This document shows positions 3,914 to 59,873 of a stretch of DNA of 64,000 nt, one piece after another. Source of the stretch: Parcubacteria group bacterium Licking1014_17 (lineage in GTDB: Bacteria > Patescibacteriota > Minisyncoccia > 2-02-FULL-40-12 > IGHO2-01-FULL-4-A); NCBI GenBank assembly GCA_007376485.1, contig VMGJ01000003.1:81252-145251 (forward strand), read 5' to 3'. The position numbers were made by a program, and so were the translations under genes. The stretch's first letter is position 1. Each line of letters begins with the position of its first letter. Under the pieces are notes generated by a model. The model saw only the letters and a program-made list of their open reading frames with translations. It searched no databases and had not been told where the DNA came from.

Positions 3914-4392
3914 GTGTCGCGGCGGGTCTATAAGCCGGATTTTGTCTTCGCCCTCCTTCGCACGGGGCTACGGAAGGGCAATGTGCGATCATTTGTCTGG
4001 GATGAACATTGCTGTTCACCTCAAGCCCTTGCGGGCTATGCGTACGAACTTTTCGGAGCCCTATCCCGCTTGCGCGGAACGGACAACGCTGTACTTGCAC
4101 CGGGCAGGGTTTAGCACGCACCTATGTCACCATAGGGCGATCAGCCTTAGGCTGAACTTTTCACCTTTCACCCGCCTTGCGGCGGATTAGTATTGTCTCT
4201 GTGCCACTTTCCCTAAGTTTTGGCTCGCGCCTTTTCTCTTAAGAAGAAAAACTGCGAAACCTTATGCTTGGTGGTCGTTAGCCACTGCCCACTTCTTCAA
4301 CTTGCAGAGGGCTTGCCCTGAGCTTGTCGAAGGGAGTCCGGACTTTCCTCTGCCGCCTTGCGGGCGACAGCAACCGCCCAACCCACCGCGAC
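3914..4392 (-). ncRNA. rnpB: RNase P RNA, bacterial type A
   Basis: The minus strand contains GAGGAAAGTCCGGACTCC (P4 5' strand) and ACAAAATCCGGCTTATAG (P4 3' strand). P1 pairing is gtcgcggtgggt with acccgccgcgac, and internal GGGCAGTGGCTAACGACCACC-like elements are present. Confidence 0.85.
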
Positions 4393-6094: not shown

Positions 6095-7272
6095 TAATAA
6101 TATCTTAACGCTTCCAGGGCGGGCAGTTTTTCGCCGCCCAAGAAAATCAGCATTGCTCCTCCGCCGATTGAAACAAAACTGTATTTTTTCAGTAAGCCGA
6201 GTTTTGTAACTTCGCTGATTGTGTCTCCTCCGCCGATAATTGAATTTTTGGCGGCCGCCACAGCTTCCGCGATTTTCCGTGTCCCCTCCGCGAATGCCTC
6301 GGTCTCCGAAAGCCCCATCGGCCCGTTCCAGATAACCATTCCTGCTTTACCGATAAAATCTGCGTACTTCGCGGCGGTTTTCGTGCCAATGTCTAAAATC
6401 ATTTCCTCGCCCGCCACCTTGTCCGCGTCTTTTATTTCGGCTTTGGAAACTGCGAGCGTATCGGGAGCCGTTACCACGTCTTCGGGAATAACAACTTTAC
6501 TCATATCCAAACCCTCCAGTGAATTTATATCTTCCGCGTCAATTAAAGATTTCCCGACTTCCAGCCCTTTAAATTTTAGAAAATTATTAGCGAGCGCTCC
6601 ACCGATTAAAATCCGCTCGGCTTTATCTAGAAAATGTTTTACCACCGGCAGTTTGGTGGAAATTTTCGCTCCGCCGAGAACCAAAACCTTGCCTTCAGCC
6701 GGCGCCTGAATCGCCCGCGAGAGATTTTCTATTTCGTCCTTCATCAAAAATCCAGCGTAAGAATCAATATATTTTGTTATCGCCGAAACCGAAGCGTGCT
6801 TTCTGTGGGCGACGGCGAATGCGTCATTTACGTAAAAATCAAAGCCCTTCGGCTCACTTCGTTCGCTCAGGGCAGGCCCTTTGGCCAGTTGTTGGGCAAA
6901 GGCATCATCATTTTTTTCTTCGCCTTCATGTCTCCTGACGTTCTCCAATAAAACAAAATTGTGCTCATTTAGAGCTTCGACGACAGCAGGACCAACACAA
7001 TCAGAAACAAAAAATATTTCCTTGCCGAGAATTTCCGATATTTGACTTACAATCGGGCTGAAAGTTTCTATGTCAGTGATGTGGGATAAAAGCGCGACTT
7101 TCGCCCCGGCACCTAATAGATAATCTATTGTTTTCTGAACCGCCTGCACCCGATAGTCGCTTGAAATCCTGCCGTGTTCCACCGGTAAATTAAAATCCAC
7201 CCGAACGAGGATTTTTTTATTTGAAAGCTCCGACTGCGGCAGAGAGTCAATATATTTCATAGTTAAAATCAT
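6094..7272 (-). CDS. pgk: Phosphoglycerate kinase
   Basis: KKILVRVDFNLP N-terminus and a glycine-rich C-terminal domain. The real start is probably the Met at MKYIDS. Confidence 0.9.
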   Translation of the reverse strand: MILTMKYIDSLPQSELSNKKILVRVDFNLPVEHGRISSDYRVQAVQKTIDYLLGAGAKVALLSHITDIETFSPIVSQISEILGKEIFFVSDCVGPAVVEALNEHNFVLLENVRRHEGEEKNDDAFAQQLAKGPALSERSEPKGFDFYVNDAFAVAHRKHASVSAITKYIDSYAGFLMKDEIENLSRAIQAPAEGKVLVLGGAKISTKLPVVKHFLDKAERILIGGALANNFLKFKGLEVGKSLIDAEDINSLEGLDMSKVVIPEDVVTAPDTLAVSKAEIKDADKVAGEEMILDIGTKTAAKYADFIGKAGMVIWNGPMGLSETEAFAEGTRKIAEAVAAAKNSIIGGGDTISEVTKLGLLKKYSFVSIGGGAMLIFLGGEKLPALEALRYY

Positions 7273-8264
7273 AGCAGATTATTTGTATTAGTAATAATCT
7301 CCCTAATTTTGTAAGTATTCCCATGCTTCAATAGCCCAAGATATGAATTGATGGTCTCCGTTCTCGGATTTTCTCTGATTCTTTTCAGCATTCTTCTTTT
7401 TGTCGATGTTCTCAAAATTCTGTGGTCTGGAAAATTAACCCAGCCGAGAAAATCAACTCCTGAAGAAAGGGTTTTAACAAATATCTTCTGGGGATGCAAT
7501 CTTAAATCTAATTCTTGCTTTAAATATTCTCCAATCGGCTGAACAATTTGCTCAAGCCACAATCTATCCTCGGATAAAATCACAAAATCGTCGCAGTATC
7601 TGATGTAATGACGGATTTTTAGTTTGTGTTTAATAAATTGGTCAAATTTATTCATATAAATATTCACAAAAAGCTGCGATGTTAAATTGCCAAGCGGCAA
7701 GCCAATGTCTAAACGGCCCGAATTGAAACTGCCGACAACTTCTTTTAACAGCCAAATAACATTTTCGTCGGAAATATATCCTGAAATGATTTTAAGCAAA
7801 ATCGCATGGTTTATGTTGGCAAAGAATTTCCGGATGTCGCATTTCAAAATCCAGCAGGTTCTTGTATTGTTCCGGCTGACTTTACGCGCGAAATAACGAA
7901 AACGATTCAGAGCTTTGTGAGCGCCTTTATTTAACCGGCAGGAAAAAGAATCGGAAATAAATATTCTATCAAAAAATGGATATAGGATTTTATAAATCGC
8001 GTGGTGCAATAGACGATCTCTGACGCTTGCTTTGTGGATATTTCTCGGCTTCGGGTCGCAGATATTGAATGCCTCATAATTTCCGTGTTTGTATGTATGG
8101 TTTACTAAATCTCGGTGCAATTCCAAAATATTATCCATTAAATTAAACTGGAATTCCTGAACATCCCGCCTATGCCTTTTACCACGTAAAAATTCTTTCC
8201 ATGCTTCCAAAATATTCTCAATGCTGATAATATCTTCAAAACTATGAGCCAATTTGATTTTCAT
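7269..8264 (-). CDS. DGR reverse transcriptase (cassette 1)
   Basis: RT domain with YCDDF (the YxDD box) and LPLGNLTSQ, the [LIV]GxxxSQ motif that separates DGR RTs from group II intron RTs (QGxxxSP). There is an adjacent TR and an Avd-like gene. Confidence 0.85.
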   Translation of the reverse strand: MKIKLAHSFEDIISIENILEAWKEFLRGKRHRRDVQEFQFNLMDNILELHRDLVNHTYKHGNYEAFNICDPKPRNIHKASVRDRLLHHAIYKILYPFFDRIFISDSFSCRLNKGAHKALNRFRYFARKVSRNNTRTCWILKCDIRKFFANINHAILLKIISGYISDENVIWLLKEVVGSFNSGRLDIGLPLGNLTSQLFVNIYMNKFDQFIKHKLKIRHYIRYCDDFVILSEDRLWLEQIVQPIGEYLKQELDLRLHPQKIFVKTLSSGVDFLGWVNFPDHRILRTSTKRRMLKRIRENPRTETINSYLGLLKHGNTYKIREIITNTNNLL

Positions 8265-8648
8265 AAAAACAACCCTTTAAGCCCCCCCCCCAAGATCTTA
8301 CCCTTACTTCAAAAGATAAAAGATATGTATTTATTGTGGTATGAATACTATCAGGTATTACCCAAACCGCATAGATATACTCTCGGTCAAAGAATTGATT
8401 ATTTGCTGGTAGAAATCATAGAAGCAATAGCTACTGCCGCTTTTTTGATGCGTGAAGAAAAAATACCGTATGTTCGTTTGGCAGTCAGGAAAGTTGATGT
8501 TTTGAAAATACTCTTAATGATACTTTGGGAAACCAAATCTCTGGGCGATAAAAAATATATAGCCCTCTCATTAAGAATTGACGGGATAGGCAAAATGCTC
8601 GGCGGTTGGCATGGCCAGCTACAAAAACAAAACTCCCCTGCTAAATAG
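8244..8648 (+). CDS. avd: Avd-like accessory protein (four-helix-bundle / 23S-IVS protein family), divergent from the RT
   Basis: 134 aa carrying HRYTLGQRI...IGKMLGGW, characteristic of the PF05635-type bundle. It starts MSQFDFHKNNPLSPPP, with the PPP encoded by a C10 tract. Confidence 0.8.
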   Translation: MSQFDFHKNNPLSPPPKILPLLQKIKDMYLLWYEYYQVLPKPHRYTLGQRIDYLLVEIIEAIATAAFLMREEKIPYVRLAVRKVDVLKILLMILWETKSLGDKKYIALSLRIDGIGKMLGGWHGQLQKQNSPAK

Positions 8649-8668
8649 CCAGGAGAGAAATGAAGTAA

Positions 8669-8803
8669 TTTGCGACGGGTGAATACCCAGCGGTCGTTGC
8701 CATTCCAGAAGTTATCAGGGTTGCCGTTGTTACCGTTGAGCCACAGGTCATCGTCATTGCGTTCGACGTTGAACACCTTGAGGTTGCCGTCCGAGTCCGT
8801 AAT
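8669..8803 (-). repeat. DGR template repeat TR1
   Basis: 135 bp, identical in register to 9137-9271 except for at least 24 positions. Every one of those is T on the plus strand, that is A in the minus-strand template. In the VR frame it encodes AAC-rich NGNNGNPDNFWNGN. Confidence 0.85.
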
Positions 8804-9057
8804 ATGTACAAGATACCTCCCTTGTCACCACCCCTTGAATACTCTTGGGGTTGTATCGTATTCGGCATCGTAATGCCATAGTATCTTATACCAAGTAGCT
8901 TCATTTTTTGAAGTATCTATATACACCACTCTATCTGAAACCGTAATCGCAGATATTCTCGATGTATGGATACTGGGTTCGGTAGTTGGAAACCTTGGTC
9001 TCCATCATATTCACCTACTGCCGTTTCCATTTTACACGACAAATGCACAAAACAAAA

Positions 9058-9077
9058 CTCGTGCATTTCTGCACGAG
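9058..9077 (-). terminator. 8-bp GC-rich hairpin with a GAAA loop, about 60 nt 3' of VR1 and followed by TTTTGTTTTG. It is either the target-gene terminator or a DGR homing hairpin
   Basis: ctcgtgca-gaaa-tgcacgag on the minus strand. A GC-rich stretch lies between the VR end and the hairpin. Confidence 0.5.
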
Positions 9078-9133
9078 CGGAAGGGCCAAGGGGCCAAGAA
9101 CCAAACGAGGTTCAAGTCCCCAAGGTCAGAGGA

Positions 9134-9799
9134 CTACTTGCGACGGGCGAATACCCAGCGGACGCGGCCAAACCAGAAGACACCAGGGCGGCCGATGCTA
9201 CCGTCGAGCCACAGGTCATCGTCACGGCGTCCGACGTAGAACACCCCGAGGTAGCCGCCCGAGCCCGCAATCGGCTCCATAGCAATCGGGAGCCCCTCGC
9301 CCTTAGGCTGGTCTTTGTATTGCAAACGCAGCTGAGGACCGACTTCGTTGGGGCAGAGCTGGAGACCGAGACTAAGTGCCCGCTCGTAGATGTCCTTGCG
9401 GGTGGCACCGTCTTTGAAGCCAATCTCAGCGACACTGACGTTCACCAGTCCGATTGAGGTTTTCTTGGGGCTTACCTTGAAATCAGGTCCGCCGAGGGTA
9501 TAGTTGCCCCAGTCGCCGATGCGGAAGCCGCCGTTCTTGAGGGCTTCACGGAACTTGCAAGCGTCCGCAAGCCCAGTGCCCAACTTGACGGTCTTCCAGA
9601 TCGGAAAGTTAACCGCTCCGATAACCTGGGGACGCCCGCCATTCTTGAGGAAGGCGGTGAAGCGGCTACCGAACTCGGCGGATGAAAGGTTGATGACTTC
9701 GACCTGGAGCTTGTCTCCATCGAGCTCATCCCAGTTAATCTGGGTTGCGACTCGGGCCGAGATTTCGAGAGCTTGACCGCGTGATACGGCTTTACTCAT
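9134..9799 (-). CDS. DGR variable (target) protein 1. It is cytoplasmic, about 221 aa, with the VR at the C-terminus
   Basis: SD AAAGGAGAAA 7 nt before the ATG (MSKAVSRGQ). The C-terminus ...GRRDDDLWLDGSIGRPGVFWFGRVRWVFARRK is encoded by VR1. Confidence 0.8.
   Translation of the reverse strand: MSKAVSRGQALEISARVATQINWDELDGDKLQVEVINLSSAEFGSRFTAFLKNGGRPQVIGAVNFPIWKTVKLGTGLADACKFREALKNGGFRIGDWGNYTLGGPDFKVSPKKTSIGLVNVSVAEIGFKDGATRKDIYERALSLGLQLCPNEVGPQLRLQYKDQPKGEGLPIAMEPIAGSGGYLGVFYVGRRDDDLWLDGSIGRPGVFWFGRVRWVFARRK
9137..9271 (-). repeat. DGR variable repeat VR1
   Basis: See TR1. The VR runs through the stop codon of the target gene. Confidence 0.85.
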
Positions 9800-9925
9800 T
9801 GTCGTTTCTCCTTTTTCTGCCAGAGGGCTACTATCCGTAGTCATAGCCAGGAAATTCCGATAAATCAGGATCTCCTGGCTATGACTACAATCGCAAGAAG
9901 TATTAAAGAGCGACATTATGTTCTA

Positions 9926-33591: not shown

Positions 33592-34590
33592 CTATATCAT
33601 CGGATTCCCCAAATTGGCAATAATTCCCCTAAGTTTGAAAGTATTCCCATGTTTCAATAGCCCCAAATATGAATTGACAGTTTCTGTTCTCGGATTTGCC
33701 TTGATTCTTTTCAATATTCTTCTTTTTGTTGACGTCCTCAAAATCCTGTGATTTGGGAAAGTAATCCAGCCGAGAAAATCAATGCCCGAAGAAAGAGTCT
33801 TAATAAATATCTTTTGGGGATGCAATCTTAAATTTAATTTTTGTTCCAGATATTCGCTAACTGGTTGGATAATTTGTTCAAGCCATGGCTTATTTTCGGA
33901 CAAAATCACAAAATCATCGCAATATCTTATGTAATAGCGAATTTTCAGTTTGTGTTTAATAAATTGGTCAAATTCATTCATATAGACATTCACCAAAAGC
34001 TGCGAAGTCAGATTGCCGAGCGGCAGACCGATGCCGAAGTAGCCCGAACTGAAACTGCCAATAACTTCCTTTAACAACCAAATAATGTTTTCATCGGGAA
34101 TATATCTTGAAATGATTTTCAATAAAATCGTATGGTTAATATTGGCAAAGAATCTTCGGATGTCGCATTTCAAAACCCAGCAGGTTCTTGTGTTGTTCCG
34201 GCTGACTTTACGCGCAAAATAACGAAAACGATTTATAGCTTTGTGTGTGCCTTTATTTAATCGGCAGGAAAATGAATCGGAAATAAACGTTCTATTAAAA
34301 AATGGATACAATATCCGGTAAACCGCGTGGTGCAACAGCCGGTCACTGACGCTTGCCTTGTGAATATTCCTCGGTTTCGGGTCGCAGATATTGAATGCTT
34401 GATAATCGCCATGCCTATATGTATGATTTACCAAATCTCGGTGTAATTCCAAGATATTGTCCATTAAATTAAACTGGAATTCCTGAACGTCCCGCCTGTG
34501 TCTTTTGCCCCGCAGAAATTCTTTCCATGCTTCCAAAATGTTCTCAATACTGATAATATCTTCAAAATTATGAGCCAATTTGATTTTCAT
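33592..34590 (-). CDS. DGR reverse transcriptase (cassette 2). The ORF track extends it to 34767, but the homologous start is MKIKLAH at 34590
   Basis: About 88 percent aa identity to RT1, with the same YCDDF and LGNLTSQ motifs. Confidence 0.85.
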   Translation of the reverse strand: MKIKLAHNFEDIISIENILEAWKEFLRGKRHRRDVQEFQFNLMDNILELHRDLVNHTYRHGDYQAFNICDPKPRNIHKASVSDRLLHHAVYRILYPFFNRTFISDSFSCRLNKGTHKAINRFRYFARKVSRNNTRTCWVLKCDIRRFFANINHTILLKIISRYIPDENIIWLLKEVIGSFSSGYFGIGLPLGNLTSQLLVNVYMNEFDQFIKHKLKIRYYIRYCDDFVILSENKPWLEQIIQPVSEYLEQKLNLRLHPQKIFIKTLSSGIDFLGWITFPNHRILRTSTKRRILKRIKANPRTETVNSYLGLLKHGNTFKLRGIIANLGNPMI

Positions 34591-34982
34591 AAAAATAGCC
34601 CTATAAGCCCCCCCCCAGGGTTTCGTTGCCGATATTACAAAGGTTGGTTTCGGCATACAAGCTGTGGCATGAACATCTGTCGCATTTTCCCAAAACCTCA
34701 CGATATACGCTCGGCGGGAAAATTGACAGCTATTTTGTAGACGCCGTCGAAGCGATTCACACCGCAAGTTATCTTGGCAAATCAGAGAAACTCCCTTGGA
34801 TCAGGCGCGCGATAACAAAACTTGATGATCTGAAATTCTTTTTGCAAATCGCTTGGGAACTCAAGGTATTGGATAACAAAAAATACATAGCACTTTCCGA
34901 GCCGCTGGCCGAAATTGGCCGAATGCTGGGCGGATGGATGCGGCAAACGGAGTCGGCAAAAACAAAACCGAACCTGTTATAG
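34498..34982 (+). CDS. avd: Avd-like accessory gene (cassette 2). It appears frameshifted at a C9 tract. The N-terminus MSQFDFHKNSPISPPP (frame A) and the body from 34626 (frame -1) are rejoined by one extra C
   Basis: The body carries SRYTLGGKI...IGRMLGGW. The poly-C is at 34608-34616. Confidence 0.7.
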
Positions 34983-35002
34983 GTTCGGAGAAACTTTGCT
35001 TA

Positions 35003-35126
35003 CTTGCGGCGAGCGAGGAACCGGCAGTCGCCGTCCCACTTGTTACCGAGGTAATTGAGGTTCGCGTTCCGCTCGTTGGCGTTCCTGTAGACGTACACGA
35101 CGTTCCGGTTGCCGTTGCGGTCCTGC
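35003..35126 (-). repeat. DGR template repeat TR2
   Basis: At least 17 mismatches to 35478-35602, all at plus-strand T (minus-strand A) positions of the TR. Confidence 0.85.
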
Positions 35127-35384
35127 TGTGTGCACGGTACCATCTATGCCACTATCCTTTGAATACTCTCGGGACTGAATCGTATTTGGGAGCATAACTC
35201 CGCCAGTACCGTACACCAAGTAGCTTTGTTTTTTGAGATACTGTGAAAATCACTGGCCGGAGGCGTACCCACGGCCACTCCGTTTTACGCAGTTCTGGAA
35301 TTCGGCCGTTTGCAGTCGTAACCGCAAACATATCAGCCTATTATCCGTGATTTACTATACTCACTATTTTCAAAAATGAAAGAG

Positions 35385-35420
35385 CGCCTCGTCCGGAAGA
35401 CCCGAACGAGGCGCAAGAGT
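35385..35420 (-). terminator. Hairpin plus T-tract about 65 nt downstream of VR2 (the target 2 terminator, or a homing hairpin)
   Basis: gcgcctcgt...acgaggcgc stem followed by TCTTTCATTTTTG on the minus strand. Confidence 0.45.
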
Positions 35421-35468: not shown

Positions 35469-36113
35469 CTACTTCTGCTTGCGGCGAGCGAGGAACCGGC
35501 AGTCGCCGTCCCACTCGCCACCGAGGTAATCGAGGGACGCGCACCGCTCGTCGGCGTGCCTGCAGACGAACACGACGCACCGGCTGCCGTGGCGGTCCTG
35601 CCAGTGCTGGCCGATGGCCGGGATCGGGAACTCCCGCTGGAGCTCCGGCTTCTCGGCGCCGACGGTCAAGTCCTCGTAGGCGTCGGCGGGCTCGAGGTCG
35701 AGCTTCGCCAGCTCGGTGAGCACCTGCTCGTCGCTCATGTCTCGCCCGAAGTGGACGAGGACGAGGTCGCTCTTGACCCTGCCCTTGAGGCGCGGCGGGA
35801 AGTTCTTGGCGTTGACGTTGCCGTTCTTCCAGTCGTACTTCCCACGCTTGAGCAGATCGGCTATGTCCTCGTCGTAGTCGATGACGTGGCAACCGAGCTT
35901 GGTGATCGTGGGGTCAGGGTAGATCGGGGCGAGGCCGAGGACCTTCCGCAGGGCGTTGCGCTCGGGCAACGTTCCCTGCTTCGAAGCCTCAATCACGTCG
36001 GCGACGATTCCGCTATCGAGCAAGTCCGCCTGGAACTTCTCCACAGTCAGTCCCTTGTCGTTGGCAAGCCGGACAACTTCATTTCCTTGGGCGAGCGTCA
36101 CGTTGTTGGCCAT
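35469..36113 (-). CDS. DGR variable (target) protein 2. It is cytoplasmic and 214 aa. The whole gene is markedly GC-rich relative to its neighbours
   Basis: SD GAAAGGAGGG before the ATG. The C-terminus ...CRHADERCASLDYLGGEWDGDCRFLARRKQK is encoded by VR2. Confidence 0.8.
   Translation of the reverse strand: MANNVTLAQGNEVVRLANDKGLTVEKFQADLLDSGIVADVIEASKQGTLPERNALRKVLGLAPIYPDPTITKLGCHVIDYDEDIADLLKRGKYDWKNGNVNAKNFPPRLKGRVKSDLVLVHFGRDMSDEQVLTELAKLDLEPADAYEDLTVGAEKPELQREFPIPAIGQHWQDRHGSRCVVFVCRHADERCASLDYLGGEWDGDCRFLARRKQK
35478..35602 (-). repeat. DGR variable repeat VR2
   Basis: See TR2. Confidence 0.85.
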
Positions 36114-48426: not shown

Positions 48427-48546
48427 ATTGGTCTGGCGGCTACCCACTTTCGCAGTCATACGACCACTATCATAGGCCTTGATGGATTTCACTTCTGAGT
48501 TCGGAATGGGATCAGGTGGGACACCATCGGTATAGTCGCCAAGCCA
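48427..48546 (-). rRNA. rrf: 5S ribosomal RNA
   Basis: The minus strand reads ...CCCACCTGATCCCATTCCGAACTCAGAAGTGAAA... with a helix-I closure. Confidence 0.85.
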
Positions 48547-48983
48547 ATGTTTTTTATTACACGGCAAACAATGTCGCCTTAATGGCAACAGAATAAATTG
48601 GACACTCAACCTTGTAAGGAAATACAGACGATCTATTAGTAACTCTTGGCTCAAAGCCTTGCGGCTCTTACACCTGAGTCCTATCAACGTGGTAGTCTTC
48701 CACGGATCTGCGAAGCCTAATCTTGGGGCCCGTTTCGCGCTTATATGCTTTCAGCGCTTATCGGAACCGAACATAGCTGCCCAGCGCTGCCCTTGGCAGG
48801 ACAACTGGTAGACCAGAGGTTCGTTCATCCCGGTCCTCTCGTACTAGGGACAACCCCCCTCAAGCTTCTAACGCCCACACCAGATAAGGACCAACCTGTC
48901 TCACGACGGTTTGAACCCAGCTCGCGTACCCTTTTAATTGGCGAACAGCCAAACCCTTGGCAGCTTCTTCACCGCCAGGATAG

Positions 48984-49862
48984 GGCGCACATTTATCTTC
49001 TATTACTAGAAGTGCAGACTATATCTTCTCCCGTCTTCCAATCGAAAGGTGGGAGTTGGCGTATTATAGCAGTTAAAAAACTGCTATCCTCTCGCAATAG
49101 CGAGAAAGTCGTTACGGGGTAAGAGAAACTTTATACAATAGACTATCTAAAATATACGGCTTGATGATTTCACAAAACTTTTGCGATGATCTTTCCGGAA
49201 TATATATGTTGAATGTTTTACCCTTTTTATGGATTGCCGCTACGATTCCGAAATTCATCTTCAGACAATCCACTAGCATTTGCTGTTCTTGATACGAAAA
49301 TATATCCGTATTAAGTCTCAGCGCATTACAATCGTTCCGTTTATATCCGTCGTCCATTACCCAAACCGCCAGCGATAATGGTTCAATAAGAATTTCTTGA
49401 ATATTATCAGGAACTATTTTGATTCTATTCTTGTAAAACATATCCCGCCATTCCTGAAATATTCCGTTTGAACATGTCGAGAAATGTAACCGCCTGTATT
49501 CTTTATTCTCTTTCTTGTGGAACGAAGTGATAACTCTGGGCTTACTTGGCACAAGGTTTTTAAATACTTCATATTTCCATAATACATACTCCTTCTGTGC
49601 CATGCCGTGGTCTACTTTTAGACGCACGCCCTTGCCATTTTGCTCCAGATGCCCGTCGCCGAGCATTGTTCCAATTAATATCGCTTTTTGTGTTGCCGTT
49701 AATAGCATACTGTATAAAGCCTCTCCTACTTCCCACGATATTATCCTATCATAGCTGGGTAGCCTCTAATAGGACTCCATCGTTATTAGCCAACGTTGCA
49801 AGTTTATTTCTTAAAAGACACAAACTTGCCAACTCGAATTACTTCGAGTACGGCCCGTTTTG
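48984..49862 (-). mobile_element. Intron-like insertion (putative group I intron) in 23S domain V. It interrupts GATGTCGGCTCA | (T)ATCCTGG and carries a LAGLIDADG gene
   Basis: The exon sequence is contiguous with E. coli-like 23S on both sides, and the boundaries were located by eye. Confidence 0.6.
49112..49708 (-). CDS. LAGLIDADG homing endonuclease (two-motif, monomeric type)
   Basis: [11 protein letters not shown] and [10 protein letters not shown] motifs. Confidence 0.85.
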
Positions 49863-50172
49863 TTGAGCCGACATCGAGGTGCCGAACACTGCCGTCGCTA
49901 TGGACGCTCGGGCAGTACCAGCCTGTTATCCCCGGAGTAGCTTTTATCTGATGATCTTCCCCGTTCCTACGAACAAGGGTCGGTTCACTAACACCTGCTT
50001 TCGCATCTGCTTGACACATCCGTCTCACAGTTAAGCCGGCTTATGCGTTTGCACTATCGCTCCGATTTCCATCCGGAGCTAGCCGACCTTCGTACGCCTC
50101 CGTTACTCTTTAGGAGGCAACAGCCCCAGTTAAACTGCCCGCCAGACACTGTCTTGATGGCACCCTAGAAGG

Positions 50173-50474
50173 GGACGAGTAAACTCGTCCGAGCATCCTG
50201 TAATATTCGTTCAAATATCACAGGATGTTATAGATTATGAGCATTAAAGAATCTAATCTCATTTTTTTGATCGCTGATACAGGTCAGAAAGAGTTTTTCA
50301 TCCCCAAAACAAAAGGGTTGTAAACTCCTGTCGCCTATGTTTTTCAACACCGCATTGGCGACATGTTTCTCTAGATCCGAACTTTCAAAATCAAACTTTA
50401 TCTGCTGTGTTCGGACTTCTGGCCCGCCTTCACATTTATTAAAGTGAAGTTTCAGAAGTATCATTTTATTTCCT
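50173..50474 (-). other. About 300-nt insertion in the terminal loop of a 23S domain-V helix. The arms are ggtggcaccctggaagg and ccttctagggtgcc. It contains an SD-led ORF plus two 3' hairpins
   Basis: The helix arms are perfectly complementary and flank the insert, and the equivalent E. coli helix is a short hairpin. Confidence 0.5.
50228..50464 (-). CDS. Small ORF of 78 aa from the SD-proximal ATG, embedded in the 23S helix-loop insertion
   Basis: GGAAGGAGGAAATAAA-ATG. The ORF ends just before two stable hairpins. No recognisable domain. Confidence 0.4.
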   Translation of the reverse strand: MILLKLHFNKCEGGPEVRTQQIKFDFESSDLEKHVANAVLKNIGDRSLQPFCFGDEKLFLTCISDQKNEIRFFNAHNL

Positions 50475-50770
50475 CCTTCCAGGGTGCCACCAGTTAGAAT
50501 TACAAATGACAAAGATGGGTGTTTCATTGGCGGATCCACGCCTCCCGAAAGAGGCGCTTCAAATCCTCCCCACTACGCTACGCATTGCCGCTCGTAACCC
50601 AATATCAAGCTACAGTAAAGCTTCCGGGGTCTTTCCGTCTTGGTGCGGGTAGTCAGCATCTTTACTGACATTGCATTTTCACCGGGCTAGTGGCTGAGAC
50701 AGTCCCCCAGTCGTTACGCTATTCATGCGCGTGGGAACTTACCCCACAAGGTATTTCGCTACCTTTGGAC

Positions 50771-51522
50771 AGTTCATTCTTTTTATTAGTCTCGGCGGAT
50801 TCAATAAACTCGCCACCGGACAGCCTCATAGTCGCCTATGAGATCGGACTCTATCTTATCGCAATTTTTTGCGATTCTGACGTATTAGTCTCTGGGGATT
50901 CTCGAGATTTTTGGTAATCAGAAAGAGAATATTTTCGCTTCCTGCCCTTACCTTCATTTAACTTCTCTCTTAATTCAATAATTTTTTCAAGACCCTCACG
51001 GGTAAAATGTTTGCCATTCGAGATGGTCTCAACGATTCTTTTGAATATCGAGAAGTTTGTTTTCTTTGAAGATGATAAAAAATTATATCTTTCAAAGAAT
51101 GGCACAATGATATCTCTCAATGAGTTTAGATTATTCACTGAATAATTCCAAACTCCATCTTTTCTTAACTCTAACCTTCCTGCCCCGAAATGTTTTTTCA
51201 TTAACGCCAGGACTGTCTGATCTCTTTGAGCCACATTGAAGGTCAAATAGATTTTCCAGCCAAAGCGGTAGTCATTCCTGGGAATTAACGAAACATTGAA
51301 GCTACCTTCACCATCCACAAAACCGGTAAAATACCAAGCTGTCGAGATGGGAATTTGTTTAATAACTTCTTTCATTTTGTTTAGAGTCTCGAGTCTTTCC
51401 TGCGGATTATCTGCACTGATGTTTTATTACTGATCTTCGACGTTCGGATCTAGTAACATCAGATACTAACCAGACTTTCCCGCATATAGTCAGATTTTAC
51501 AACTACAACTGTCGTTATAGTT
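50771..51522 (-). mobile_element. Intron-like insertion (putative group I intron) in 23S domain IV at the helix-69 region. It interrupts GGTAACTATAACG | GTCCAAAGGTAGCG, near E. coli position 1917, and carries a LAGLIDADG gene
   Basis: Exon junctions were read directly. Confidence 0.6.
50851..51375 (-). CDS. LAGLIDADG homing endonuclease (single-motif, homodimeric type)
   Basis: FTGFVDGEGSF motif. Confidence 0.85.
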   Translation of the reverse strand: MKEVIKQIPISTAWYFTGFVDGEGSFNVSLIPRNDYRFGWKIYLTFNVAQRDQTVLALMKKHFGAGRLELRKDGVWNYSVNNLNSLRDIIVPFFERYNFLSSSKKTNFSIFKRIVETISNGKHFTREGLEKIIELREKLNEGKGRKRKYSLSDYQKSRESPETNTSESQKIAIR

Positions 51523-52554
51523 ACCGCCGTCGTTCACGGGTGCTTCGGGCATCTGCAATGAGCTTGCGCCCACCACTTCAACCGTTAACATTCCCGCACC
51601 GGACAAGCGTCACCCCGTATACATCCTCTTTCGAGTTAGCACGGAGTTGTGTTTTTGATAAACAGTCGCCAGGGGTCTTTCGCTGCGTCCGCGCTTGCGC
51701 GCGGAAGGCCTTATCGCTAACTTACGGCCGCTTTTTTGCCGAGTTCCTTAGCCACTAATCACCCGTTCGCCTTGGTACAATCATACCGGTCCACCTGTTT
51801 CGGTTTTAAATACGTACCCAATCCTTTTGTCTTTAGAAGTTTTTCTTGGAAGCGCGCTCCCTTGAATTTCACCTTGCGATGATTTCCACAACGCTTGGGT
51901 TTCGCACTGAAGCGGCGACACGGATTTGCCAATGTCGCACCCTTACGCCATGAACGCAAATCCTTAATGCGCTCAGGGTACTGCATTTCGTCTCTCCATC
52001 AGAAAGGACCGGGGGGCCGGAATATTAACCGGCTATCCTTCGGCCTCCCCCGCCCGCAAGCGGGGTTATCCTTAGGCACGCCTAACCCTCCGTTGATTGT
52101 CATTGCGGAGGAAATCTTGGACTTTCGGCGAGAGGGGTTTTCACCCTCTTTGCGGTTACTCATCCGAGCATTCTCTCCTCCAAGCGCTCCAGCATGTCTC
52201 ACGGCACACCTTCACTGCGCTTGAAGTGCTCCCCTACCGTATGGAGACTTCGTAAAGGACTTAAGAATAAAAATTCTTAAGAAAAAAAAATGGACGGCGA
52301 GGAAGTAACTATGGTATCCAGGCACCACCAAGGACTTGCCCGGTCCCGGAACCCCACTTTTATACGTGAGGTTCTTAAGTTGGACTTTTAGGGAGCAGTA
52401 GCCATGGTTTAGCGGTCCGCGATAGTTAACTTCCTCGCTTATTTTTCCTTTACGAAATCTCCACACCCACGCATTCGGTACTATGCTTAGCCCCGTTGAA
52501 TTTTCGGCGCATCTTGCCTCGCACGGCCGAAGCCGTGTATCGAATAGTAAGCTG

Positions 52555-52596
<42 letters not shown>

Positions 52597-53227
52597 TATC
52601 TGTCTAAGGCAAAACACTTCCTTCTGTCACTTAGCATAGATTTAGGGACCTTAAGCTGTGGTTAAACGGCTATTCCCGTCGCGACCGTGAAGCTTTGCCC
52701 CCACGGTCTCACTACCGGTCATTACGCCGCGGTATTCAAAGTTTGGTTGATAATCCTACCCAGAGGGCACAGAAAATCATCCAGAGCTTTACCCCCGCGG
52801 TTACTAACCGGCGCTGCCCCTAAAGGCATTTCGGGGAGAACCAGCTATTACCGAGTTCGATTAGCTTTTCACTCCTACCCGCAAGTCATCCGATGATGTT
52901 GCGCTATCAACCAGTTCGGGCCTCCATCCGCCTTTCGGCGAACTTCACCCTGCTCACGGGTAGCTCACCCGGCTTCGGGTCTTTTACAAGCTACGTACAC
53001 ACATATATAAACCGAGGTGCAAACTCACCCGGTTTATATAGATGTGAGTCGCGCTATTAACACTTGGTTTCCCTTTGTCTCCGCCCTGTCGGGCTTAGAC
53101 TTTGCAACTTGTAAAAACTCGCTCGGTCATTCTTCAATAGGCACACCGTCGCCCCTTCGTCTTGCGACGAAAGAGTTCCGGCTCTTTGTAGGCATATGGT
53201 TTCAGTTACTATTTCACTCCCCTCACC

Positions 53228-53270
<43 letters not shown>

Positions 53271-54292
53271 ATCATCAAAAGTATTTAGTCTTGGACCGTA
53301 GTAGGCCCGGATTCACCACGGATAGTCTCGTCCATGGTTACTTAGGTAAAGAGACTTTCGCCTCAATAATACGTAGAGTTCGGAAATTTTCGCTTACGGG
53401 GCTATCACCCTCTTTGGCCGGCCTTTCCAGGACCGTTCTGCTAACCGCCGAATTTGTAACTCTATTTATCTTTGGAGCACAGCTTTCAGCCTCCCATGCC
53501 TCATGGCAGTGGAAGCTGGTCGCCGTGCAGATAATTGTATTATCCCTGCAACACCCGTTTATGTACTTTTAGGTACGAACAGGTTTAGACTATTGCCCCT
53601 TTCGCTCGCCACTACTTGGGGTATCGCGAACAACAAACGCCTGTATGCCTTGCGGCACACGGGTGTTCATTGTTACGTTCGCTTTTTTTTCCTCTGGGTA
53701 CTGAGATGTTTCACTTCCCCAGGTACGCCTCCCGGCTTGCGCCGGAATCACCGCATGTTACTGCAGTGGGGTTTCCCCATTCGGACATCTCCGGATCAAA
53801 GCCCGCTAGACGGCTCCCCGAAGCTTATCGCAGTCACGCCACGTCCTTCATCGCCTTTTGATGTCAAGGCATCCTCCATACGCCCTTGTTATGCATTTCC
53901 TTACAAGGTTGAGTTTCCAATTCCTTGTAGTACTTCCGATACCAAAGCCGCATCTTCTTATACCAGAAGTTCTAATCAGACTTAATTGTTAAAATTCTTG
54001 CCTTTTGCTCCCTGCGGCTGGCTCCTTAAAGAGGCAATCGTAGGAGGCTCTCCTTCGCCGAAAACGTATCATGGCTTCGGGGGAGTGGGCAAATTAGACT
54101 TAAAAACCGCGTCCGGCGCGGCTGTTTTGAATCGCTTCAAGTTAAAAATCAGCACCAGCCGCTTGTTTTTATAAGTCTATTGTATTTGGTATTCATTTGT
54201 CTTTGGTAATTGTAGCAGAACCCAACCTACGGAGTCAATACGTATGTTGATAAGGCGTTGATATCGCTAAGGACATCTTCAGACGGCGCGCC

Positions 54293-54410
54293 CCTCACCA
54301 CTTTTGCCGCCCAGCCAACGATTACTTCCGTTAAAACCTATTGCTGATTGCGCCGTTGGTTTTAAGCTTAAAACCAACGGTAATTTTCTGGCAAAAGTGG
54401 TGGGGGGGGT
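54293..54410. other. Nested inverted-repeat structure about 400 nt upstream of the 23S 5' end. Outer stem ccaccacttttgcc / ggcaaaagtggtgg, inner perfect hairpin ccgttggtttt-aagctt-aaaaccaacgg
   Basis: Read directly. It may be an rRNA leader or processing element. Confidence 0.3.
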
Positions 54411-55282: not shown

Positions 55283-57337
55283 TCAAATCAAAAATCTCGC
55301 TATCAGCAGCGCCACGATGTTTGCTACCTTAATCATCGGATTGATCGCCGGTCCCGCCGTGTCTTTGTAGGGGTCGCCGACTGTGTCGCCTGTCACCGCC
55401 GCCTGGTGGGCGGGGGATTTTTTGCCGCCGAAGTTCCCTTCCTCAATATATTTCTTGGCGTTGTCCCAGGCGGCGCCGCCGGAAGTCATTGATATTGCCA
55501 TAAACAAACCGGTGATAATTACGCCAACCAACAGACCACCCAACGCTTGTGGTCCCAGCAGAAAGCCGACAGCGATGGGAATTACGATTGGAATCAAGGC
55601 GGGGATTATCATTTCTTTCAAAGCCGCCCTGGTAACAATATCTACCGCCGCCGCGTAATCGGGTTTTCCCGTCCCCTCCATTATGCCGGCGATTTCCCTG
55701 AACTGCCGGCGCACTTCTTCAACTATCGCGCTACCGGCTTTGCCCACCGCCTTCATCGCCATCGAGCCGAAAAGATAAGGCATCATGCCGCCGATTAATA
55801 AACCGATTAAAACCGAAGGGTTAGTCAAATCAAAACTGATGGGCGCTCCGGCGCCGGCAAATTCTTGGGTGTAAGCCGAAAACAAAACCAGAGCCGCCAG
55901 TCCCGCCGAGCCGATAGCATAACCCTTGGTTACCGCCTTGGTAGTATTACCCACAGCGTCCAACGGATCCGTCGCCTGCCTTACTTCTTCCGGCAGGTTA
56001 GCCATCTCGGCGATGCCGCCGGCGTTATCCGTAATGGGACCGAAAGCGTCAATTGCCAAAACTATCGCCGCCAGCGAAAGCATGCTCAAAGTAGCCAGCG
56101 CCACTCCGTACACGCCGACAAAAATATATGAGCCGAGTATCGCCGCGCAAATCACCACCACCGGCCAGACCGTTGACCGCATGGAAACCGCCAGCCCGGC
56201 GATGATATTTGTGCCGTGCCCGGTCTTGGATGCTTCGGCAATCCCCCGCACCGGTGAGAATTTTTTTGAAGTGTAATAATCCGTAATCCAGAAAATCAAG
56301 CCGGTAACCGCCAGTCCTATTATCAGGGCCAGAAATATTCTATAGCCGGCGATTTCGCCCAGCACCGGTTTCCAGACCAACGTCACGTAAAAAGAAGCGA
56401 CAGCCAGTATCGCTGTAAGAATCAGTCCCTTGTACATTGAACCCATAATACCCCCGTTCGGCCCATTCGATGGACTCAGGGCAGGCAGGCTCGGGGCAAG
56501 CACCTTGGGACCCAATTTTACAACCAGCGAACCTACAATTGACGCCAGCACGCCGATAGCGCCGATAAAAAGCGGAAAGGTAATTATATTCGCGATTGAA
56601 GAATAAAGTAGATTGCCCAGAAGCATTACCGAAATCGTAGAGACCAGATAAGTTTCAAAGACATCCGCCGCCATGCCTGCTGTGTCGCCGACGTTGTCGC
56701 CTACGTTGTCAGCAATGACCGCCGGATTGCGCGGGTCGTCTTCCGGAATTCCGGCCTCAACTTTGCCGACCAAATCCGCGCCGACATCCGCGCCCTTCGT
56801 GTAAATCCCCCCGCCAAGGCGGGCAAAAACCGAAATCAGCGAACCGCCAAAGCCCAAACCAATCAAGGCGGTTACGTCTTTAGTGAACCAATAAAATAAA
56901 GTCAGAACCAGAAGCCCGAGGCCGACCACGAAAAAGCCGGTTACCGCCCCGCCGCGGAAAGCCAGATTGAAAGCGTTGACGATGCCCGATTTTGCCGCTT
57001 CCGCTACCCGCACGTTCGCCCGCACCGCCACAAACATCCCGATATAGCCGGCGAGCGCCGAAGCCGCCGCGCCCACAATAAACCCAATTGCCGTGGTTAC
57101 GCCCAGAAATATATACAGGATTATCGCTACCAAAATGCCGACGACGACTACGACCTTATACTGCCTTTTCAGATAGGCATTCGCTCCTTCGCGGATTGCC
57201 TGCGAGATGGACTTCATCTTTTCATCCCCCTGCGGTTGTTTCAAAACGTTAAGTATCAAAACCGCCCCGTAAACCAGCGCCGCCAGAGCCGACGCCAAAG
57301 AAAAAATTAAAATAGTCATATGGATTAAAACTAACAA
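55283..57337 (-). CDS. hppA: Membrane-bound proton/sodium-translocating pyrophosphatase
   Basis: [14 protein letters not shown] and other V-PPase signature segments, about 16 TM. Confidence 0.9.
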
Positions 57338-58356
57338 ATAGATATCTTTTTTTCCAGTTTTGACTCCATCGCTTTCTGAATATTATAACCGCAACAATGT
57401 TTCAAAACTCCCAGATAAGATTGTAAGTTATCGGTGTTAACTTTTTTCAAAATTCTTCTTCTTGTTTTTGTTCTCAAATTTACGCAGTATGGTCTGACAA
57501 TATAACCCAGAAAATCAATTCCCTGCCGGTATTTTCTAATGATAATTTTTTGCGGATGAAGATTTAATTGTAATATATTATTCAGATAATTGCCGACTAA
57601 AAACGATAATTCGTATAAATAATTTTTATCTTCGCTTAAAATAATAAAATCATCGCAATATCGGAGATAAAATTTCAATTTCAGATGGTGTTTTACAAAC
57701 TCATCCAACTCATTCAAGTATATATTCGCGAATAGCTGGCTTGTCACGTTGCCGAGTGGTAATCCTTTGTCAATATCTTTTTTAAAACTACTAATAATAA
57801 CTCCCAACAGCCAGAGTACGTTTTCGCCGTGAATCTTTCTTTTTATTAGACCAACTAGAATTTCGTGATCTATCGAATCAAAAAATCTCTTGACATCGCA
57901 TTTCAAAGCAAAAATATTCCTGCTGTTGTTTCTGCTCAATTTGCGGCAAAAAGATTTTAATCTCCTGATTCCTCTATACGTGCCTTTTCCCAGCCGACAA
58001 GAATAAGAATCAAAAATAAACCCAGCATCAAAAATTGGATAAAGAATCCTGAAAACGGCGTGATGCAGGATTCTATCTCTAACTGTGGCCTTATGAATGT
58101 GCCGAAGCTTTGGGTCAGTGATGCAAAAAGATTCGTATGGTGAGTGCTGATAAATCTTGGCTGATAGTTGATTGTGTAACCCAAATAGGTTATCTTCCAG
58201 ATTAAATTCGAATTCTAAAATGTCGCGTCTCTTCTTCTTTCCACGCCTAAATTCTTTCCACGCTAAAAACAAATTTTCCAAACTGATTATTTCTCCAAAT
58301 AAATCATGACTCTTATAAGCCCCCCCCCAAAAAAAAACTCCATACCTTTGATTCAT
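57331..58356 (-). CDS. DGR reverse transcriptase (cassette 3). The start is ambiguous, and the ORF as drawn reads through a T9/G9 homopolymer
   Basis: RYCDDFIIL and LPLGNVTSQ motifs. Confidence 0.8.
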
Positions 58357-58671
58357 AGTATTTGCGATTTATACAGGAAAATATATCTTGTCGGACTTAA
58401 AATCCCCAAAAGAGACAGGCTGGGAATTTGCGCAAAAATTGAATCTATATGCCTTGATTTAATAAACTTACTAATTTCAGCCGCTTTTGAATCTAAAGAT
58501 AGGAAATTGTCTTTTCTTACTATTGCTCGTGTTAAAACAGAAATTCTAAAAAGATTGGTCCGGCTTGCGCATGAAATTGACGTAATCAAATCAGTTAATT
58601 ATATAGAATTGGAATCGCAATTGCAGGAAATATCAAAAATGATAAATGGCTGGATCAAATATTTAAAGTGA
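58306..58671 (+). CDS. avd: Avd-like accessory protein (cassette 3)
   Basis: 121 aa, [10 protein letters not shown] encoded by a C9A9 tract, with a C-terminal ...EISKMINGWIKYLK. Confidence 0.8.
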   Translation: MTLISPPPKKNSIPLIHSICDLYRKIYLVGLKIPKRDRLGICAKIESICLDLINLLISAAFESKDRKLSFLTIARVKTEILKRLVRLAHEIDVIKSVNYIELESQLQEISKMINGWIKYLK

Positions 58672-58700
58672 GAAAAACTCCCTAAGGAGTTTTTCTCACA

Positions 58701-58824
58701 AAACTACCTGACGGGCACGGAGGTTGTCGTTGGCATTGCCTGTGTTGTTCCAGTTCACGTTGACCTTGTCATCGCTGTTCCGATACATGTTTGGCACGTC
58801 GCCATCCTTGTTGCGAGAACCCGC
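58701..58824 (-). repeat. DGR template repeat TR3
   Basis: 124 bp at a constant offset of 410 from VR3. At least 20 mismatches, all at plus-strand T positions of the TR. It is AAC-rich in the VR frame. Confidence 0.85.
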
Positions 58825-59102: not shown

Positions 59103-59873
59103 CTACAGAGAAACTACCTGACGGGCACGGAGGCGGCCGCTGGCAAGGCCTGTGAGGTCCCAGCTCACGTAGACCCTGACATCGCTGCCCCGATACATGA
59201 CAGGCACGACGCCATCCTTGTGGCGAGAACCCGCACATAAAGTTACGTTCTTATTGTCGAGATGGCCACTGGTCTTCCAATTGAACCATCGCCCAAGAAG
59301 AAGCCTTTCAAGAAGATTTATACTATTGATTTTCTTCTCCGCGACCCAACTGGCGGAGAGATTCTTGAGCTCTTCGTCAGCCTCTACGCGGTCACGCGTC
59401 CAGATAACGTAGGGCTTGCCGACGGGCATCCTGACGTTTTTTGTGACGACTTCATCCAAATTAGCATCACAAAATTTCCATTTCTCCGGGAACGAATCGA
59501 AAACCATCTGCATTGTCACACCGGGAACAACCAGCACACCCCAATTAAAACCGGGGGTTACTGGGGGCAGGGGAATTTGCGATGTTTTTCGGATTCTGAT
59601 GTTAAGCGCCTCCTTATAGAAATCCGCCCAGTCCTTCAGGAAGGATTTAACATCCAGCCCCGAGGTGGCATAGGTGATGCCTCCGTTGTCCTGATTAGTG
59701 GCTGTAGTTACGTCACCAACCAGTACGATTTCTGCCTCGCCGCGAAGGGCTTTGAGATGTTGACTGGCAATATTGCCACCACTCAGCTTTTTCACGTCTT
59801 CTGGCGTCCACCCCCCACGCTCAAAAGCGTGATCCAGCTCGGCTGCCTGTCGACTTGTCATAATTGATCCCAT
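59103..59873 (-). CDS. DGR variable (target) protein 3. It is cytoplasmic and 256 aa
   Basis: SD AGGAGA before the ATG. The C-terminus ...GSRHKDGVVPVMYRGSDVRVYVSWDLTGLASGRLRARQVVSL is encoded by VR3. Confidence 0.75.
   Translation of the reverse strand: MGSIMTSRQAAELDHAFERGGWTPEDVKKLSGGNIASQHLKALRGEAEIVLVGDVTTATNQDNGGITYATSGLDVKSFLKDWADFYKEALNIRIRKTSQIPLPPVTPGFNWGVLVVPGVTMQMVFDSFPEKWKFCDANLDEVVTKNVRMPVGKPYVIWTRDRVEADEELKNLSASWVAEKKINSINLLERLLLGRWFNWKTSGHLDNKNVTLCAGSRHKDGVVPVMYRGSDVRVYVSWDLTGLASGRLRARQVVSL
59111..59234 (-). repeat. DGR variable repeat VR3
   Basis: See TR3. Confidence 0.85.

Follow-up and report, generated by a model that had tools for sequence, protein, structure and literature searches.

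A length-variable homopolymer at the avd/RT junction of diversity-generating retroelements in Patescibacteria: a candidate contingency switch

Three diversity-generating retroelements (DGRs) lie within a 64-kb stretch of contig VMGJ01000003.1 of Parcubacteria group bacterium Licking1014_17 (hereafter the window), and each of them carries a long run of C, read in the sense of the accessory gene avd, where the 5' ends of avd and of the reverse transcriptase (RT) gene meet. The run had been remarked upon in a preliminary description of this DNA; the remark was correct, and the run turned out to be clade-wide and variable in length. We favour the reading that slipped-strand changes in its length act as a contingency switch, which controls Avd and, in loci built like cassette 3, the RT too, and we give this reading a probability of about 0.55. 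Replication slippage would alter the length of the run by one or more bases, and this would move the four-helix-bundle domain of Avd, and likewise the RT in the cassette-3 layout, in or out of frame with its ATG. Such frame switching would turn the capacity of a lineage for mutagenic retrohoming ON or OFF in a stochastic and reversible manner. The regulation of DGRs is largely unknown, above all in uncultured bacteria of the candidate phyla radiation (CPR), where DGRs are unusually abundant. If true, the switch would offer a heritable and reversible means to confine costly hypermutation to a subpopulation, and it would explain why many avd and RT genes of the CPR look truncated or mis-started in annotations (e.g. 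Avd1 at M28). Run length would become a readable marker of the ON/OFF state of DGRs in metagenomic reads, and phase variation by simple sequence repeats (SSRs), mostly known in host-adapted pathogens, would be extended to the Patescibacteria.

The order of parts on the minus strand is the same in the three cassettes: a target gene with the variable repeat (VR) at its C-terminus, a spacer of about 280-340 nt, the template repeat (TR), avd on the plus strand, and RT (Table 1). The preliminary description gave an overlap of 20-50 bp between the 5' ends of avd and RT and had the homopolymer always contained in it. The overlaps are confirmed, with 21 nt in cassette 1 (8244-8264), 21 nt in cassette 2 (34570-34590) and 51 nt in cassette 3 (58306-58356), and so are the coordinates of the three runs; however, the run falls within the overlap in cassette 3 only and lies 18 nt past it, in avd sense, in cassettes 1 and 2. 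Seen from the other strand, the run is a G-run that ends 17 nt short of the RT ATG in cassettes 1 and 2, as had been described. The proposal that the run codes for an SPPP of Avd holds in cassette 1 but not in cassette 2, in which the SPPP is not joined to Avd and ATG 34570 is out of frame. One more C in cassette 2 would give MSQFDFHKNSPISPPPRVSLPILQRL..., parallel to the in-frame C10 of cassette 1. From these frames we infer that cassettes 1 and 3 are ON and that avd of cassette 2 is OFF. In cassette 3 an A9 (58329-58337) directly follows the C9, which makes two adjacent hypermutable runs; a similar C9-10 followed by A8 is seen in two related loci, L091 and L093.

The C9-C10 runs start 14-38 nt past the avd ATG, and they are the only C-runs of at least 7 nt in the window. 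Its GC content is 47%, yet the proline codons are uniformly CCC through the run. The two genes have reciprocal starts: each ATG is paired, on the opposite strand, with a CAT that the other gene reads in frame as His. In cassette 1, for example, the CAT of RT His7 lies opposite the avd ATG and the CAT of avd His7 opposite the RT ATG. Throughout the three overlaps the avd and RT reading frames are codon-aligned on opposite strands.

For comparison we used 80 loci of GTDB species representatives and 80 loci of metagenome contigs (L001-L160), for which an RT alignment served as query. Conservation of the run is evident from a G-run of at least 7 nt (RT sense) at the avd/RT junction in 121 of the 137 non-redundant loci, and it is present over RT identities of 48-71%. 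Taking all 142 retrieved loci whose run has at least 6 nt, lengths range from 6 to 12, with 9 in 56 loci and 10 in 46. The run is also specific to this site: G/C runs of at least 8 nt occur 125 times at the junction and 0 times elsewhere in 847 kb of related loci. A more distant sub-clade (L054, L061, L064, L066, L070, L071, L074, L080) is without the run, and its Avd has a clean start, M-(N/D/T)-(N/D/E)-(F/H)-D-(I/T)-P-I, e.g. MNDFDIPIF. In L024 (CAITNV010000038.1) a (CA)/(GT) repeat of about 16 units takes the place of the poly-C within the N-terminal extension of avd, about 57 nt upstream of the RT start. Such a repeat at this position argues that mutability, and not the sequence itself, is conserved.

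Translation into the run is indicated by the reading frames ahead of it. Read from the avd ATG that lies antisense to the RT His codon, 118/121 loci have no stop before the run, against 22/121 and 24/121 in the other two frames. Measured from this fixed ATG in 122 loci, avd is in frame in 35, has one C too many in 55 and is one C short in 32; if any upstream ATG open through the run is admitted, 39/121 are in frame with the Avd domain. The dependence of Avd on the frame is apparent from relatives without a long repeat, all of which have Avd in frame (17/17). Interrupted or short in-frame examples include ACC CCA CCA GCC in L008, GCC TCC CCT GCA in L118 and C5 in L015. Past the run, the Avd open reading frame (ORF) is intact in 81 of 82 out-of-frame loci, with a median of 122 codons, and the out-of-frame genes are therefore not decaying. 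If translation starts ahead of the run, the expected N-terminus of Avd would be MSQFDFHKNNPLSPPPK.... A search of 5.8 billion proteins returned many long-form Avds with the pattern M..F.H...PP(P)(P)..LP.LQK, and among them near-identical Avd domains whose N-termini carry PPP or PPPP or are interrupted or shifted in frame. An Avd homologue annotated in Licking1014_17 shows 100% identity to the window protein across the part that it spans, and in GenBank Avd1 of this genome (P0002) is set to start at M28.

Exact-protein look-ups with RT1, the neighbouring Pgk and P0002 gave no match on record to an independent assembly of this genome, and same-strain comparisons were for this reason taken from relatives. 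Ten same-strain contig pairs (independent assemblies with identical flanks) were available, and three of them have a single indel, one base long and within the run. These are L091/L093 (5969 nt aligned, 0 mismatches, run 10/9), L115/L117 (2212 nt aligned, 0 mismatches, run 10/9) and L157/L160 (4623 nt aligned, 17 mismatches, run 11/10). In each of the three, one allele encodes a full-length Avd from an upstream ATG (ON) and the other does not (OFF), a natural ON/OFF polymorphism of length at the DNA level. The loci L092 and L094, from different samples, are identical save for a 30-nt indel about 60 nt downstream of the RT match.

Two layouts can be told apart by the position of the RT start. 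In the layout of cassettes 1 and 2 (77 non-redundant loci), the run belongs to the N-terminal extension of avd and to the RT leader, RT has an in-frame ATG past it, and Avd alone is gated; RT1, which starts downstream of the G-run, is thus not frame-gated. The cassette-3 layout is found in 44 of the 121 non-redundant run-bearing loci. Here the run is internal to the coding regions of both genes, no RT-frame ATG exists past it, and the RT ATG lies upstream of it, commonly followed by N or H and then Q (M-N/H-Q). The preliminary description regarded the true start of RT3 as unclear; ATG 58356 matches the upstream N-terminal ATG of homologues with the same layout (MNQ in L065 and L076, MHQ in L060), which settles the point. 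In cassette 3 and in, for example, L067 this RT ATG is antisense to the His codon of the Avd motif P-L-(I/V)-H-K. The two starts are antisense to each other with their codons aligned, and for this reason one and the same length change brings the ATGs of RT and Avd into frame, as seen in 43/43 cassette-3-type loci with an upstream RT ATG open through the run; eight more loci of this type, without such an ATG, stand outside this count. In L067, for instance, RT and Avd are both out of frame at C10, and both would be in frame at C9. A tentative extension, to which we give somewhat less credence than to the switch itself, is that in a large clade of CPR DGRs the run, translated on both strands (as PPP and GGG) in 44/121 loci, would switch the whole hypermutation machine ON and OFF in individual lineages, and that populations would be mosaics of DGR-active and DGR-silent cells.

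Three marks of SSR contingency loci are found at this junction, namely a repeat above the mutability threshold in the 5' coding region of avd, length polymorphism with ON and OFF states, and over-representation of the repeat, which is conserved as such and not for the residues it encodes. With the poly-G/C loci of Campylobacter, Neisseria, Haemophilus and Helicobacter the junction runs share a length of 7-12, a position after the start codon and ON/OFF frames, and further the length polymorphism between near-identical strains and the interchangeability of repeat types. Unlike those loci, they occur in an uncultured CPR host, and the gated gene encodes an accessory factor of hypermutation and not a surface or restriction-modification function. 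A further difference is the cassette-3 layout, in which both strands of one run are translated and two divergent genes are gated together. The TA-repeat of Haemophilus influenzae hifA/hifB and the poly-C of Bordetella fim are comparable in that a single repeat between or within divergent genes controls expression; those switches act by promoter spacing, whereas the junction runs point to control of the reading frame within coding sequence. A search of the literature for DGRs with homopolymer, slipped-strand or phase variation gave no prior account of the run, an earlier mention (e.g. in Paul et al. 2017) not being excluded.

Several observations weigh against the contingency switch. The related loci are not phylogenetically independent. 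Heterogeneity and reversibility within populations are predictions, as are the switching rate and the effect on DGR activity and retrohoming, and a difference of one base between two assemblies may stem from a miscalled homopolymer in the consensus. The in-frame share of 1/3 is the same as expected of a non-coding run, and runs as short as C7 are in frame no more frequently (1/9). In many loci of the cassette-1 type a conserved TTG, the Leu codon of LPVLE, follows 5-12 nt past the run; it may serve as an alternative start, so that OFF may not be fully off. Finally, the state with one C too many is in excess (55 vs 35 and 32, chi-square about 7.7), which could point to +1 slippage of the ribosome or of RNA polymerase.

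Slippage of this kind is the main rival. Under it, the polymerase would stutter on G9-12 or the ribosome would shift by +1 at CCC-C, and any genomic run length would yield some Avd and RT in frame. DGR proteins would be held at a low level by the run as an attenuator, independently of frame, and drift of the DNA in length would be tolerated without being put to use. CCC-C is prone to +1 shifts and PPP stalls ribosomes, both of which fit such recoding, as do the commonness of all three frame states, the always intact downstream ORF and the excess of precisely those states that a +1 shift would rescue (55 vs 32). But a fixed programmed frameshift would give one conserved offset, and none is seen; the (CA) repeat of L024 is neither proline-coding nor a homopolymeric slippery site; transcriptional slippage is best documented at A/T runs; and the members of the ON/OFF pairs differ in the DNA itself. 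On balance we regard recoding at the RNA level as unlikely, though it keeps a real share of the probability.

A weaker rival gives the run a purely non-coding role. Avd would then start past the run, e.g. at the TTG, and the run would be a promoter spacer or 5' leader that tunes transcription of the divergent avd and RT genes, in the manner of the Bordetella fim poly-C and the Haemophilus hif TA-repeat, which are promoter switches. The chance-like in-frame share, the TTG 5-12 nt past the run in many cassette-1-type loci, the GenBank start of Avd1 at M28 and the position of the run within the RT leader in cassettes 1 and 2 would all agree with this. It is contradicted by the open frame between ATG and run (118/121 against about 19% in control frames) and by the interrupted or repeat-less relatives, locked in frame from that same ATG in 17/17 cases. 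Moreover, cassette 1 is without a canonical start between the run and helix 1, and cassette-3-type loci have no conserved alternative start for either Avd or RT. Scans of the three junctions for sigma-70 promoters yielded no conserved site, and their hits did not outnumber those in shuffled controls. We therefore consider this role improbable.

A different model takes up a proposal of the preliminary description, a long sense transcript running from TR through about 400 nt of antisense avd into RT, and adds antisense control of avd by the overlap. TR, antisense avd and RT are indeed collinear on the minus strand, and terminators can leak. Yet in a simple scan 89 of 135 relatives have a TR-strand hairpin with a T-run in the interval from the 3' end of TR to the avd stop, compared with 2 on the avd strand. 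A stem of CTCTCC...GGGGAG is repeatedly found, with TTTTGTTTT as its tail. In the window, cassette 2 has a scan-called hairpin of this kind, and the hairpins of cassettes 1 and 3 were recognised by eye; all three overlap the avd stop (Table 1). Cassettes 1 and 2 have a terminator-like site of their own after each target gene as well. As a TR-sense terminator-like site thus lies between TR and the avd stop, TR is probably transcribed on its own, into a short RNA that stops there. Furthermore, co-transcription of TR and RT is not required, according to Wu, Gingery, Abebe et al. (2018, NAR 46:11, PMC5758913). The long transcript is accordingly a doubtful proposition, less probable than a non-coding role of the run. 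The conserved hairpin itself could be the terminator of the TR RNA, part of a priming structure of the DGR RNA, or both; a search of the cassettes against Rfam gave no known RNA family.

Least probable of all is that the differences in run length are Illumina or assembler errors and the out-of-frame avd genes pseudogenes: poly-G/C runs are error-prone and some contigs are of low coverage (their names give cov 2-3), but about two thirds of the loci are out of frame, far over consensus error rates, the Avd ORF past the run is intact in 81/82, the run is kept across RT identities of 48-71% with none in 847 kb of flanking sequence, and L024 has a dinucleotide repeat in its place.

Some narrower roles of the run were ruled out. 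A ribosome-binding site for RT is incompatible with a spacing of 17-21 nt or more, and a G-quadruplex with the presence of a single run only. The (CA) repeat and the interrupted in-frame variants speak against a sequence-specific motif for binding of RNA or protein. A fixed programmed frameshift fails because all three offsets occur, and selection for PPP at the protein level because proline is encoded by CCC throughout and anything from 2 to 4 prolines occur.

The three cassettes are genuine DGRs. DGR-type RTs are defined by the motifs (I/L/V)GxxxSQ and YxDD, and RT1, RT2 and RT3 have the RVT_1 domain of Pfam (E 1e-18 to 1e-23) with invariant LGN(L/V)TSQ and YCDD motifs. The TR/VR repeats are 124-134 nt long, and in the TR/VR alignments every mismatch falls on a TR adenine (Table 1). 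In each cassette the VR is at the C-terminus of the target and ends 4-9 nt ahead of the stop codon. The 3' terminal stretches of TR and VR, putatively similar to the initiation of mutagenic homing (IMH) site, are identical save for one A-to-G in cassette 1, 12 nt from the 3' end. The plus-strand Avd ORFs of all three cassettes score 48.7-58 bits with bAvd of Pfam (PF22296), above the gathering cut-off of 40 bits, and 54-73 bits with DivGenRetAVD of NCBIfam, under its cut-off of 80 bits. The bAvd match starts directly past the C-run.

The position of avd on the strand opposite to RT, TR and target, noted in the preliminary description for all three cassettes, is correct; its designation as a non-canonical architecture is not. 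Upstream sequence was sufficient in 143 relatives, and in every one of them (143/143) avd is the gene directly upstream of RT and is encoded on the opposite strand. This arrangement, in which a reversed avd separates TR from RT, is architecture B3, TR-(avd)-RT, of Wu et al. (2018, PMC5758913) and accounts for 90% of CPR DGRs. Comparison with the curated CPR architectures and with the relatives thus reveals the reversed avd as the common form, and the three cassettes are ordinary B3 members of the CPR type with an architecture that was already known. Gene order, strands, the Patescibacteria/CPR host and adenine-specific TR to VR mutagenesis all agree with B3. In the text consulted, the published descriptions of B3 are without mention of a homopolymer, of frame variation in avd, of the reciprocal ATG/CAT overlap or of a TR-sense terminator on the avd stop.

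The DGR of Bordetella phage BPP-1 (mtd-avd-TR-brt) has in common with the cassettes an RT with LGxxxSQ and YxDD, a four-helix-bundle Avd, a TR/VR pair and a C-terminal VR. In BPP-1, however, avd is co-directional, upstream of TR and without the repeat, whereas in the window it is antisense and between TR and RT. The DGR RNA of BPP-1 includes a stretch of the avd 3' end together with the TR-brt spacer.

Table 1. Parts of the three DGR cassettes in the window, with junction homopolymers and terminator-like hairpins
Feature	Position	Strand	Description
avd1	8244..8648	+	134 aa; bAvd domain from about aa 19-21
Cassette 1 homopolymer	8282..8291		C10 in avd sense, G10 in RT sense; avd N-terminal extension (S-P-P-P); Avd in frame (predicted ON)
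RT1	7269..8264	-	331 aa; RVT_1, LGNLTSQ, YCDD
Cassette 1 hairpin	8633..8657	-	G-U pair favours the minus strand; T-rich tail 8621-8632; overlaps avd1 stop; by eye, uncalled by scan
TR1	8670..8803	-	TR/VR mismatches 24/24 at TR adenines
Target gene 1	9134..9916	-	VR 9138-9271; terminator-like site 9057-9078
avd2	34570..34982	+	ATG 34570 through C-run; Avd domain frame 34626-34982; frameshifted at run
Cassette 2 homopolymer	34608..34616		C9; one C below in-frame length; predicted OFF, or expressed by way of slippage or of TTG 34626
RT2	33592..34590	-	84% identical to RT1; homologous start ATG 34590
Cassette 2 hairpin	34968..34988	-	Scan-called; TTTTGTTTTT tail; directly 3' of TR2; overlaps avd2 stop
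TR2	35003..35126	-	TR/VR mismatches 16/16 at TR adenines
Target gene 2	35469..36113	-	VR 35478-35601; terminator-like site 35384-35414
avd3	58306..58671	+	121 aa
Cassette 3 double homopolymer	58320..58337		C9A9; within the 51-nt overlap; Avd PPPKK(N), RT (V)FFWGG; both in frame (predicted ON)
RT3	57331..58356	-	341 aa; starts M-N-Q at ATG upstream of run, reads through T9G9
Cassette 3 hairpin	58668..58699	-	14 bp; T-rich tail in TR sense; overlaps avd3 stop; by eye
TR3	58701..58824	-	TR/VR mismatches 20/20 at TR adenines
Target gene 3	59103..59873	-	VR 59111-59234

Directly 5' of TR, a block of about 100 nt is kept between cassette 1 (8804-8960, minus strand) and cassette 2 (35127-35290, minus strand) and more weakly in cassette 3. 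Its pattern is ...AAGCTACTTGGT.TA.G.TACT...CCAAGAGTATTCAA.GG.T.GTG.CA..., and it may act as promoter or form the 5' portion of the TR RNA.

Outside the cassettes, the only G-run of at least 7 nt in the window is a G8 at 54402-54409, upstream of the 23S rRNA gene. The match to this gene extends over 48616-53900 on the minus strand, i.e. 5.3 kb as compared to the 2.9-kb model, which implies about 2.3 kb of insertions; insertions of introns or intervening sequences are typical of CPR rRNA genes. A 5S rRNA is found at 48431-48543, and a bacterial class A RNase P RNA at 3915-4389 on the minus strand (154.9 bits).

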